NCBI RefSeq assembly: GCF_963506605.1
Contig: NC_083288.1
Location: forward strand, 42,966,001-43,030,000
DNA length: 64,000 bases
Reading direction: 5' to 3'
Origin: Zootoca vivipara
Lineage: Eukaryota
The position numbers were made by a program, and so were the translations under genes. Below the pieces are notes generated by a model. It made no database searches. It saw nothing but the letters and a program-made list of their open reading frames with translations, and was not told the origin of the DNA. The first letter of the stretch is position 1; each line of letters starts with the position of its first letter. This document shows, in pieces, positions 30,501 to 34,658 of this stretch.

Positions 30501-33500
30501 GTAAGGTCTGGATCATGACAGCTCAGATGGATTTCATTTCCATTCCACTTCAAAGAGATTGGGACATAGACTTCCTCCATGGTGCTATATCCTTTGCCAT
30601 TCACTCCAGTGAGGTTGTAGGATTCCAGAAATTTCTTCAGGTGAGAAACCCCACCTCAGAAAAAGAAGATGGCTTCATTAGGGTCTTCTGGGAACAAGCA
30701 TTTGGGTGTTTGTTCCCCAACTCCATGGTAGACCTACAGGATGAAGAAATCTGCAGTGGAGAGGAGAAGCTGGAGGGTCTTCCTGCGTCTGTTTTTGAAA
30801 TGAGCATGACTGGCCACAGCTACAGTGTCTTCACAGCTGCCTTTGCAGTAGCACATGCATTGCAGGCCATGCATTCAACTAGATACAAAGGCAGAATGGT
30901 AGTAGATGGAGGAGTAAAACTTCAGAATCAAGAGTTATGGAAGGTAATGTCCTGAATATAGTAAGAACAAAGGAAGGGTCCAAAATGTTTCACAAGACCC
31001 CTGGGCAAAGTTCACCATTCGTGAGGATGCCATTTTATGGCCCAGCAGGTGTAACCAGGTTTGACTCCGGACACATTTTTGCAGGCCATTTTGCCAGTCT
31101 TCAAGAAGTGTCATGGAAATACTTCTGTCTCTAGTCCTAAGGCAGGGATGGGGAACCTTCAACCCTCCACATGTTTCTGAACTGCAACACCTATACTCCA
31201 AGCAAGCATAGCCAATACCTGTAGGTCCCACAGCCTACAACTACAATGTCTACATAGAAGTCTATGTGGATGCACACACTTTGCATGTCATGCATTCAAC
31301 TAGCTTTTTTTAAAAAAAAGAATGATAGTGAATGAAGGAGTAAAATTTAAGAATGAACGGTGATGGAAGGTAATGTCCTGAGCAAGCTAAAAGTAGAGTA
31401 GAAATGGTGATGGATAAGTACAAAGGTTTCCCAAGGCAGCCAACTTCTGCTTCTGCCTTCCACCACGTCAGGGTCATAAATGTAGTGGTGGCTATACCAT
31501 TCTGACCTGTTCTGTGGCTGCCCAGTCATTTCCTTCATTAGTACTACTGTTACATTTTATTATTGTAGTTTATTACTCTATCTGTTTATTGTATGTATCT
31601 CTCATCGTTCCTGCCCTAGGGCTCTTTCCCTCTCCATATCTATTCTTACTTGATATAAAGTTTTTAAACAGTTCAGTAAACAAGTGGGAATGATCACCAG
31701 TCTTTTGTATATCCTTATGAATTTGCTTTCTTTTATTTTCTCTCTGATTCTATCCATTTTTTCTCCCTAAACAGCTCAACTACTTTGTTAAAAGCATCTC
31801 ATTTAATAATAGTGGTGGGGGGAAAGTTTCCTTCAACCAAAATGGAGAGTTAGAGTCTGGATTTGATATTATCAACTGGGTCACATTTCCAAACCAGTCC
31901 TTTTGGAGAGTGAAAGTTGGAAAGATCGACCCCATGGCTCCCCAAGAAGAAGCGTTCAGCATTAGTGAAGAAGCCATTGTGTGGCCAAGCAGGTTTAACC
32001 AGGTGAGATTAAATTCATATTTTGTAGCCTATCCATCACTTCTATAATGATTTGCAGTTCAGATACTCACCTAGCTCTGTGCTACATTCATCCATGTGCT
32101 TAGTGTAGGAGTGAGGGCATGGCTGTAGAGATCTTCCATGTTTTGCCAATTAAGTGACATTCATCAAACCCACTGTTGAACTACTACTGCCAAATTTGCT
32201 ATTTGGAAAAAAGTAAAACTTTTTTAAATTTACAGAGGGTCATATTCATGTAGGGCAAGGCAGCATAAGGATTCCCTCTATCACAATGGGGCTTGCTTCT
32301 TTCCTTTCCCTACCCAAATTTGTGAAATATGGCTCTCCGTTCCTTTGGACCACATCAGTGAGGTAGGCAGGGGTGTCTTTTTGTCTGGGTAACCCAGGAG
32401 CTAGACACACACCGCCCAGATTTTGTACTGCTAATGTAGCAGGTCAACTTCTCCCTCAGAGGTGTATTACAATGGATGACAATAACAACAGTTGCCTCCA
32501 ACTGTGGAGAAAGAGCATAGCCATCATGGCAAGTAGCCCTTGATTGCCCTTTCCTACTTGTCTCTTGCTTCTTCCACCATAAAAGGAGATAGTTCAGTAA
32601 GTTAAGAGAATATAATACATTGTGGATACACAATATTGCAAAATAGAAAACATTCTCCTCTTACATTTTTGGACAGGCACAACCCCTTTCTCTTTGTAAT
32701 GCCAATTGTCCTTTGGGTTATCAGAAAACAAAGAAGGAAGGGAAACCATTTTGCTGCTATGATTGCATTGCATGTCCAGAAGGGAAGATTTCTAACCAGA
32801 CAGGTAAGAGACATCATGGATACAGCCTTAAAGATATACTGACACTAAGATGTTCAGACACTCACTTCCCTTGTGATGTTCAGTTGTTCAAAAATTCAGG
32901 AAGGTTTTTCAGAATTCAGTGAAGGTTGTGGTTCCTGATATGGGGGTATAGCCTGATATATTCAATAATTTCAGTCCAAGCCATTGACAGCTGGTAATTA
33001 TATACAATAAATAATAATAAAATAAAATAAAATCAGACGAAGGAGGTATCATAAGTGGGGGTAAAACAGAAACCTTCAGAAACATGGAAGGAATTCAGGA
33101 AAAAGCTAAGGGTGCAACAGCCTCTCTCTCTTAAAACAAGACCCAAGAACCGTGTCTCATAATTCAGAGAAGAGTTAAAACTGAAATACAACTGTCCACA
33201 TATTAGTCTGTAATTGTAAATCGGGTGATAATGGACAAATGTAATATCCAAAAAGGAACAAGACAAGGATGTCCATTGTCACCACTGTTGTTCATTCTGG
33301 TACTGGAAGTGCTTACGAGAAGGGTAGGAGAAGACAGAGAAGTGTCTAGGATAAAAGTTTTTTTTTTAAAAAAAAGAACATAAATTGAAAGCATTTGCAG
33401 ACGATACAGCAATAACAGTGGATGATCCAAAAAACTCTCCCCCATATTGTAGTCTGGAAGATCCAATCGTGTTCGGATGTTAAAAGTTGTGAACACGTAA

Positions 33501-34658
33501 AATCTTCTAGAATCCTGACCGTAAGTGATAACATTGAGCTTCGGAAGCTGAGTTAGATCCTAACATCTGGTGGTGGGTGGGAATTAAACCTTTCCTGAAA
33601 ATGGCATGTTGCTAATAATATATATGAGAAGTGTGACAAACTGTCTCTCCCCCTTCCCCCCCCCAAGATATCAACTTGGTAGCCCTTATTTAAGGTTTTT
33701 CATTTTGATCATTTTAGTATCATTCATGTGGTGGTGCTCCTATGGCTTCTATTTTTCAGACATGGATGAGTGCTTTCGGTGCCCACAAGATCATTACCCA
33801 AATGTGGAAAAGGATTCTTGCATTCCAAAAGATATAAGTTTCTTGTCTTATGGAGAACCACTGGGGATCTCTTTGGCCTGCTTTGCTCTTTCTTTTTCTT
33901 TCATCACAGGGTTGGTGCTTTGGATTTTCATAAGGCACCGGGACACTCCCATAGTCAAAGCCAACAACCGCAACCTCTCCTACACTCTCCTCATCTCCCT
34001 CTTGCTTGCCTTCCTTTGTGCTTTGCTATTCATTGGTCAACCTGAGAAAGTGACATGTCTCCTTCGACAAACAGCTTTTGGCATCATCTTTTCCGTGGCT
34101 GTTTCTTGTGTGTTGGCCAAGACAATCATCGTGGTCCTTGCTTTCATGGTCACCAAACCAGGTTCCAGCATGAGGAAATGGGTGGGGAAACAACAGGCCA
34201 CCTCCATTGTTCTTTCCTGTTCTTTGATTCAAACTGCTCTTTGTACTGTGTGGCTGGCAACTTCTCCCCCATTCCCAGCTTTAGACATGCACTCAATGAA
34301 GAACGAAATTATTCTGCAATGTAATGAAGGGTCAGTTACCATGTTCTACTGTGTTTTGGGGTTTATGGGCTTGCTGGCCATTGTCAGCTTCTCTGTAGCC
34401 TTCCTAGCCAGGAAGTTACCAGACAGCTTTAATGAAGCCAAGTTCATCACCTTCAGCATGCTGGTATTTTGCAGTGTGTGGCTGTCCTTTGTTCCAACTT
34501 ATTTAAGCACAAAAGGAAAATATATGGTGGCTGTGGAGATCTTCTCCATCTTGGTCTCTAGTGCTGGTTTACTAGGCTGTATATTTTCACCAAAATGTTA
34601 TATTATTGTGGTGAAGCCTGAGTTGAATAGCAAGGAGCAACTCAGAAGGAAGAATTGA
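27263..34658 (+). CDS. Vomeronasal type-2 receptor V2R-B, 6 exons, 890 aa
   Basis: Exons 27263..27531, 28066..28357, 30086..30943, 31775..32002, 32677..32803 and 33760..34658 sum to 2673 nt in frame, all GT-AG. Confidence 0.95.
28066..28357 (+). CDS. V2R-B exon 2
   Basis: 292 nt; [18 protein letters not shown]...YKIPQ. Confidence 0.95.
28847..29341 (-). mobile_element. BovB (RTE) 3' fragment in V2R-B intron 2
   Basis: ORF 28857..29186 is nearly identical to 10321..10650. Confidence 0.92.
30086..30943 (+). CDS. V2R-B exon 3
   Basis: 858 nt; FIYGSAP...LWK. Confidence 0.95.
30980..31369 (+). pseudogene. Relic exons in V2R-B intron 3: 3' part of a decayed exon 4 (30980..31058) and decayed 3' end of an exon 3 (31228..31369)
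   Basis: ...ATTCGTGAGGATGCCATTTTATGGCCCAGCAGGTGTAACCAG|gt, then CCACAGC..GTCTATGTGGATGCACAC..TGGAAG|gtaatg. Confidence 0.82.
31775..32002 (+). CDS. V2R-B exon 4
   Basis: 228 nt; [15 protein letters not shown]...WPSRFNQ. Confidence 0.93.
32677..32803 (+). CDS. V2R-B exon 5
   Basis: 127 nt; [11 protein letters not shown]...[17 protein letters not shown]. Confidence 0.93.
33211..33442 (+). mobile_element. Internal L1/Tx1 reverse-transcriptase fragment in V2R-B intron 5
   Basis: [21 protein letters not shown] motif; absent from the paralogous V2R-D intron (~60010). Confidence 0.8.
33760..34658 (+). CDS. V2R-B exon 6 (7TM)
   Basis: ttttcag|[11 protein letters not shown]...QLRRKN*. Confidence 0.96.

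Follow-up and report, generated by a model that had tools for sequence, protein, structure and literature searches.

Probable cross-subfamily chimeras among tandem V2R genes of the lizard Zootoca vivipara, and the scar in intron 3 that accompanies them

Introduction

In Drosophila, tandem duplications with ends in two genes on the same strand give rise to fusions of the 5' part of one parent with the 3' part of the other (PMC4069613). The anti-Lepore HBB/HBD genes of mammals are described as arising by unequal crossing-over or conversion of similar sequences (PMC4041002), and in a vomeronasal cluster FPR genes have come under V1R or V2R promoters and first exons by exon shuffling (PMC7873101). 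For V2Rs, gene conversion has been reported among fish OlfC/V2R paralogues (PMC6588630), and the squamate family is known as class C G-protein-coupled receptors with six exons and large tandem expansion (PMC3590772). Here we describe a V2R array on C13 of the lizard Zootoca vivipara, in which three tandem genes, V2R-D, V2R-E and V2R-F, appear to combine the front half of their neighbour V2R-G with the back half of a gene of another subfamily, termed X, and in which these three genes and V2R-B (hereafter by their last letters) carry a scar of spare exon pieces in intron 3. The window, i.e., the whole stretch of 64,000 nucleotides (nt) that was analyzed, is C13:42966001-43030000 (contig NC_083288.1 of assembly GCF_963506605.1); positions without prefix count from its first letter, and genes elsewhere are named by C13 or C17, their position in kb and a strand letter (p or m). 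An original prediction, made from the window alone, held that B and D are chimeras formed by an out-of-register crossover.

Results

A switch of relatives at the exon 3/4 boundary

B, C and D each consist of six exons with canonical splice sites; all three are intact and encode 890, 890 and 888 amino acids, respectively. E, F and G lie directly downstream of the window (C13:43030439-43061372) and were found after a search with the scar of B gave two further copies; E and F each encode 888 amino acids in six coding exons with open frames and canonical splice sites. The class C order of flytrap domain, nine-cysteine domain and seven-transmembrane domain (7TM) is present in D, where Pfam assigns ANF_receptor to exons 2-3, NCD3G to exon 5 and 7tm_3 to exon 6, and where exon 4 alone gives a weak ANF_receptor match below cut-off (E 0.043). 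The six-exon plan is a mark of the V2R family, and a protein search with exon 6, in which 132 of 743 candidates were scored, gave at least 132 close matches, located on C13 and C17, with CaSR as a distant match.

The alignment of D with G starts about 2 kb upstream of the gene, runs through exons 1-3 and intron 3 into exon 4, and then ends. Amino-acid identity of D to G is 95, 97, 93, 63, 76 and 78% in exons 1-6, and that of D to B is 59, 74, 58, 95, 98 and 93%. Synonymous divergence (dS) of D from G rises from 0.061 in exons 1-3 to 0.852 in exons 4-6 (0.05-0.09 vs 0.80-0.85 for D, E and F), and that of D from B falls from 0.730 to 0.171. Of the trees of 38 genes, that of exons 2-3 places D, E and F beside G, that of exons 4-5 places them beside B, and that of exon 6 groups them with B and C. 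Approximately unbiased (AU) tests, performed with 15 of the 38 genes, reject a clade of D, E, F and G in exons 4-5 (p 1.5e-40) and in exon 6 (p 1.3e-12), as well as a clade of B, D, E and F in exons 2-3 (p 2.9e-55). MaxChi places a break at the exon 3/4 boundary in all three genes that 0/200 permutations reach; in D, the ratio of G-like to B-like sites changes from 325:15 on the left to 30:228 on the right. With proxies from outside the array (C17:40798p and C13:41816p), the break in D persists (0/200) and G shows none (59/200). D, E and F have, in short, 5' and 3' parts with different nearest relatives and a sharp switch between them, and a congruent history of the two halves is rejected, as the original prediction anticipated.

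We put at roughly 0.8 the probability that D, E and F are cross-subfamily chimeras, with exons 1-3 of G on exons 4-6 of another subfamily, and that they likely originated by a tandem duplication that fused intron 4 of G to the exon-3 end of a lost neighbour, X. Intron divergence amounts to 0.07-0.14 between B and D/E/F and to 0.06-0.12 between G and D/E/F; the B-D (0.07-0.12) and D-G (0.09-0.12) values are alike, which fits one old burst of events, and the homogenisation of introns that had been suggested for the cassette is not seen as an ongoing process.

Two dead exons in intron 3

The features of D and of the tandem unit that contains it are as follows:

51159..61451, plus strand: first tandem unit (intergenic DNA and gene D); similar units hold E and F
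53748-54010, 54614-54905 and 55620-56474, plus strand: exons 1-3 of D, G-type 5' module, 96.8% nt identity to G (dS 0.061)
56475..57214, plus strand: G-type intron 3 of D, 690 nt aligned to G, p = 0.087
57215..57362, plus strand: 148-nt dead exon 4 derived from G, which breaks the frame and contains one stop; acceptor and donor canonical
57448..57673, no strand assigned: multi-copy repeat inserted in D only and absent in B, E and F; 89-93% to 10423-10658 and 28860-29084
57674..57905, plus strand: G intron-4 piece, G/X junction near 57773, and dead X exon-3 end; dead donor at 57906
57906..61204, plus strand: X cassette in D, i.e., intron 3, exon 4 (58593-58820), exon 5 (59484-59610) and exon 6 (60303-61204)
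61452..64000, plus strand: start of the second tandem unit, upstream of E; the unit continues beyond the window

The unit measures about 10.5 kb and is present three times (D, E and F); 51159-53301 aligns with 61452-63513, and also with the DNA preceding F and G. Intron 3 of D begins with G intron 3 and the 148-nt remnant of G exon 4; these are followed by two stretches of G intron 4, together with a later repeat that we take to be SINE-like (short interspersed element), and then by the junction, the end of X exon 3, and X intron 3. The foreign exon-3 remnant comprises the last 130 nt of the exon, donor included. The original prediction recognized the succession of dead exon 4, dead exon-3 end with donor, and working exon 4 in both B and D, and this order holds, except that B retains only the last 79 nt of its dead exon 4, without acceptor; the G intron-4 sequence between the two dead exons had not been described.

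The 3' piece of the dead exon 4 scores best to G among 38 exon 4s (in B, 91 vs 66 for the runner-up), and the 5' piece scores best to the C17 relative of G, with G second. The dead acceptor of D, which had been tied to C, is closer to G both over the last 15 nt (14/15 vs 12/15) and over 60 intronic nt (54 vs 25), which rules out C as source of the dead exon and points to a 5' parent, G, outside the window. E and F are without the dead donor, and F and B without the dead acceptor. D and F are identical over 128 nt in the dead exon-3 end.

The junction joins the interior of G (intron 4) to the interior of X (exon 3) on the same strand, at a motif that reads CCACACCTAC in the G intron and CCACAGCTAC in exon 3, with 9/10 letters in common. 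Homologous crossover between paralogues, the mechanism first proposed, does not describe this joint, which is out of register, has a likeness of about 10 nt and left two dead exons; its architecture fits a non-homologous tandem duplication instead.

Proposed origin and the missing parent

In the scheme that we propose, X would have lain upstream of G, and a duplication guided by microhomology would have produced the order X - [G exons 1-4, X exon-3 end to exon 6] - G. G is found downstream of the fusion, as a tandem-duplication origin expects, and X is absent. The superfluous exon 4 of G and the exon-3 end of X, which had no acceptor, then decayed where they lay, as the scar shows directly, with splicing presumably passing from G exon 3 to X exon 4, which is in frame because both sides are phase 0. 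The resulting unit would have been multiplied to the three copies now present. Later, the cassette may have moved once more, into B, by a second non-homologous joint 36 nt into intron 3 of B; this transfer would also have needed an exchange near the end of exon 6, and X itself would subsequently have been lost. The dead exon-3 end finds its best live match at 79-80% among the candidates compared.

A chimera formed by deletion or ectopic insertion, with X downstream of or far from the G copy and no tandem duplication, is unlikely. With X missing, its former location is unseen, and its nearest relatives, at 41.8 and 42.66-42.71 Mb, are 0.3-1.2 Mb distant, which would suit such an origin; however, intact G persists directly downstream of the fusion copies, the DNA behind D, E and F leads into the same intergenic DNA that precedes G, and exon 6 of C, the gene directly upstream, resembles that of X (dS 0.28 to D), as could be true of a one-time neighbour.

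The cassette in gene B

The corresponding features of B are:

27263-27531, 28066-28357 and 30086-30943, plus strand: exons 1-3 of B, B-subfamily 5' module; the exon 2-3 tree has 41816, 42663 and 42679 as its sister genes
30944..30979, plus strand: B's own intron-3 start, 36 nt, up to the left junction of B
30980..31058, plus strand: dead exon 4, 3' part only, from G, 79 nt, without acceptor; dead donor at 31059
31059..31232, plus strand: two G intron-4 pieces, the second within a dispersed repeat
31233..31369, plus strand: G/X junction, then dead exon-3 3' end of X; dead donor at 31370
31370..34658, plus strand: X cassette in B; its intron 3 has lost 260 nt by deletion, and exons 4-6 are at 31775-32002, 32677-32803 and 33760-34658

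As predicted, B and D align from 30980/57284 onward through introns 3-5 and exons 4-5, and the alignment continues through exon 6, with blocks at 30980-31143/57284-57447 (92.7%), 31133-31446/57674-57982 (86.0%), 31445-33195/58236-59999 (87.8%) and 33458-34648/60025-61191 (88.3%). The predicted single-residue difference in exon 5 (41/42 residues match) was likewise found, and so were the divergent exons 1-3 (72-79% nt identity) and the unalignable introns 1 and 2, which together with the 2 kb upstream have 0 aligned bases. The likeness stops at 34648, and the 3' flank of B weakly matches flanks of the B subfamily. The point at which B enters the scar, 30980, falls within the dead exon 4. B and D have small deletions in common when compared with G, and C13:42996998-42997121 and 42997135-42997232 in B match G at 84% and 90%. 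Exon 3 of B and the start of its intron 3 are those of the 42.66-42.71 Mb subfamily, the first 36 nt of the intron matching C13:42688p at 35/36 and B's own dead-donor intron at 22/36. Each of the three trees puts both halves of B into a single clade, and dS of B to 41816p is similar for exons 1-3 (0.333) and exons 4-6 (0.354), so that B has a real joint yet is an ordinary protein of its subfamily. The proposal that B and D are both chimeras is thus sustained for D across subfamilies, and for B in a mild form, by virtue of the shared 3' cassette.

These one-clade halves and similar dS values would also be expected if B were X, its exons 1-3 being X's own and the scar having merely been taken back from a D-like copy, and X exons 1-3 are lacking for comparison. 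We consider this improbable. At the live exon-3 end and intron start, B differs at 31/129 sites from the state shared by the dead copies of B and D, and at 8/129 from 42688p, which argues that B is probably not X; moreover, an extra conversion would be required, and dS of B to 42663m is 0.285 in exons 1-3 vs 0.405 in exons 4-6.

A conversion tract from 42688p into the exon-3 end of B was considered and is not established, the two sharing only 2 private sites, both intronic. Separately, gene 42629m (C13:42629156-42629358) belongs to another clade in exons 2-3, yet at the end of exon 3 it is 88% like B and at the start of intron 3 it agrees at 32/36; this exon-3 end is likely a conversion tract. 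Intron 5 of B contains an insert (33195-33458) absent from D, one frame of which resembles what is presumably a decayed reverse-transcriptase piece of a long interspersed element (LINE).

Constraint, receptor halves and splicing

Among D, E and F, the 2667 coding nt contain 0 indels, whereas about 2600 intron nt contain 14-24 frame-breaking indels per pair. The neutral chance of finding no coding indel is 1e-7 to 1.4e-3 per lineage (6.6-16 expected), where introns may gain indels faster. For exons 1-3, the ratio of nonsynonymous to synonymous divergence (dN/dS) among the three genes is about 0.5, compared with 0.20 for exons 4-6 and 0.08-0.15 for exons 4-5. In D, E and F, X exon 4 shows 1 change towards a G residue, in E, and none that is shared.

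V2R exon 4 aligns to residues 464-533 of CaSR, in a numbering consistent with Asn468 and Asn488 of PMC4977154. As given there, the eight listed L-Trp contacts are all at residues 70-298, and the contact of the active dimer lies between lobe 2 and the cysteine-rich domain (PMC4977154). This places the joint inside the flytrap, after the pocket; exon 4 completes the Venus flytrap, so that exons 1-3 do not form a whole domain as originally supposed. From sequence, D, E and F would keep the promoter and pocket of G and use the flytrap end, cysteine-rich domain and 7TM of X, and they are predicted to be G-like in ligand choice and X-like in activation and dimer contacts.

Several observations weigh against this account. 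Intact X was found neither by a DNA search (17 candidates scored) nor by the exon-6 protein search (132/743 candidates scored), both of which are lower-bound searches, and because no intact X was seen, its order relative to G is only deduced. The dead exon-3 piece differs by 0.20 between B (31237-31369) and D (57778-57905), with adjoining scar pieces at 0.06-0.07, for which no explanation was found, and B-D dS is 0.10 in exons 4-5 vs 0.20 in exon 6, which implies further exchanges in exon 6. The groups compared in the AU tests were chosen after the trees had been inspected. The junction motif was likewise selected after the joint was seen, so that the odds of its likeness (95 of 2,000,000 random pairs equal it) are overstated, and the C17 relative of G agrees with only the first 8 of the 10 motif letters of G. 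The mapping of the pocket relies on CaSR, a distant relative. Finally, on a splice matrix trained on 132 acceptors and 114 donors of this V2R family, the live exon-4 acceptors of D, E and F, which have an A-run before the AG, score -5.2, -4.3 and -0.7, which is lower than any of the 132 training sites (minimum 0.5), and the dead exon 4 of D, which holds a stop, retains an acceptor (7.1) and G's own donor; its inclusion would break the frame.

These splice-site features would favour the view that D, E and F are chimeric in DNA yet mis-spliced or dying, through inclusion of the dead exon 4 or skipping of the weak live acceptor. We regard that as quite unlikely in view of the three intact frames with canonical sites, the 0 coding indels and the low dN/dS in exons 4-5, the long pyrimidine tract directly upstream of the A-run at the live acceptors, and the loss of the dead donor in E and F and of the dead acceptor in F and B. 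An in-frame cryptic exon from the dead acceptor to the dead exon-3 donor was rejected, as it would leave the frame and contain stops in both D (691 nt) and E (406 nt). In an RNA run (X22, about 6/100 read) the 12 aligned reads were all on the repeat and are uninformative for splicing; run X11, possibly RNA, has intron coverage at low depth.

Support from further contigs

Contigs of organism C bridge the G/X junction (X17, 31036-31263; X18, L012:4139-4379 and 4192-4347), as does contig X11 of organism A, and the 260-nt deletion of B is present in contig X16 of organism B. Contig X1 (30948-31102) spans the left junction of B with 0 differences. At that junction, the pieces of X12 and X17 among the 24 of 1193 listed end at 30981, as scar-free paralogues do. 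An assembly artefact, with paralogues collapsed or mis-joined in this tandem array, is hardly credible: although none of the listed pieces (24 of 1193 and 32 of 1090) covers the whole of intron 3 and X1 or X9 may be the source animal, the four junction copies are 6-12% apart with private indels, and the bridging of the junction by contigs under other species labels already largely refutes it.

Swaps among the sampled V2Rs

A survey of 1,864,000 bases gave 102 genes with exons 2-6, out of 120 full exon-6 matches; given the 743 candidates of the exon-6 search, these genes represent only some of the V2Rs present. Introns with a spare exon piece occur in 6/102 genes, namely B, D, E, F and two unrelated cases, and the scar in intron 3 has a single origin in the sample. 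A switch with chi over 40 was detected in 14/102 genes, of which 5 belong to this event, 2 to an intron-5 swap on C17, and 7 are weaker mosaic breaks within exons 5-6 (chi 44-66) in the C13:42.10-42.21 Mb cluster. The intron-5 swap is carried by C17:40994m (C17:40990808-40996900, minus strand), in which exons 2-5 are 93-97% like C17:40809p, with introns that also align, and exon 6 is 97.7% like C17:41161m, with the switch about 30 nt before exon 6; judged by its sequence, this gene is a second strong V2R chimera.

Of all parts of these genes, exon 6 has been exchanged most frequently, and C is a further case:

37549..49115, plus strand: V2R-C, intact; exon 6 (48217-49115) groups with B/D/E/F

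Its exons 1-5 do not group with those genes, the first half of its exon 6 is 95-98% identical to B, and the AU test rejects placing exon 6 with the exon 2-3 sister of C (p 0.00026), which suggests that a later B-C conversion may have taken place; the gene is not flagged by the chi survey. At least D, E, F, C and C17:40994m among the sampled genes appear to have a 7TM exon from a lineage other than that of the pocket.

The general idea of the original prediction, i.e., modular shuffling that diversifies V2Rs by spreading a cassette under different binding modules, has limited support: the cassette is found under two 5' modules rather than many, and the 102 genes hold one intron-3 event and one strong intron-5 swap besides the exchanges in exon 6. 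That lizard V2R arrays exchange binding fronts and signalling tails across old subfamilies at a rate that matters, such that selection can tune activation apart from ligand choice, is at present a doubtful proposition; it would be helped by shared splice phases, through which even out-of-register joints could be spliced clean.

Other rearrangements were noted in the region. V2R-A, on the minus strand, has a 256-nt copy of part of its own exon 3 in its own intron 5 (13523-13778 and 18127-18382, 98.8% identical), which reads as a recent local duplication. Gene 43118p (C13:43121238-43127868) shows an internal tandem duplication, with a truncated exon 6 and a repeated exon 5 between its first exon 5 and its complete exon 6, and tblastn located V2R copies without middle exons at C13:42638544-42641835 (exons 3-4 gone) and C13:43090743-43098648 (exons 2-4 gone). 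Upstream of the window, about 245 kb without V2R exon match (C13:42721291-42966000) separate two V2R clusters.

Discussion

The array offers a base-level record of the birth, clean-up, triplication and passing on of a class C receptor chimera, with one parent still adjoining. G and D/E/F amount to a natural experiment, their pockets being 93-97% alike and their tails 63-78% alike, which can show the part of the tail in V2R activation. There is also a consequence for classification, since in a tree from the 7TM alone D, E and F would join B and C and be separated from G. V2R trees built in this way, such as the squamate tree in PMC3590772, can thus group receptors with unrelated pockets, and if swaps are in fact frequent, such receptors will be misplaced in them.

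We found no description of a V2R-V2R chimera in the full-text literature searched, from which subscription journals were largely absent; the portion of PMC10463633 available holds nothing on V2R chimeras. The lizard genes are, as far as the accessible text of these sources goes, a new case of a known kind, the general mechanism of tandem duplication being known (PMC4069613, PMC4041002) and shuffling in the vomeronasal cluster being known for FPRs (PMC7873101).

Among V2Rs, the fish OlfC/V2R study shares with our array the exchange between paralogues; it reports GENECONV tracts, and its main text, in which 'chimer' and 'recombination' occur 0 times, describes neither a chimeric gene nor a scar at a breakpoint, though its GENECONV tables could hold comparable cases (PMC6588630). 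The squamate family described in PMC3590772 has the same six-exon class C plan and tandem expansion; the tree given there uses 7TM sequence only, and conversion is left as an open hypothesis. The FPR case is alike in that exon shuffling within a vomeronasal cluster was resolved by splicing and then duplicated (PMC7873101); there, however, a foreign coding exon gains a promoter, whereas here two V2R coding halves are joined within the flytrap. Anti-Lepore HBB/HBD genes are likewise fusions of tandem paralogues that were kept, with a parent inactivated or deleted (PMC4041002), but the lizard joint leads from intron to exon, with about 10 nt of likeness, between subfamilies at dS of about 0.8. 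The Drosophila chimeras resemble the lizard genes in that duplication ends inside two genes yield the fusion (PMC4069613). They differ in that the lizard parents are paralogues with the same exon plan, in that out-of-register ends left two dead exons, and in the later history of the lizard fusion, which was triplicated and passed its tail on to another gene.

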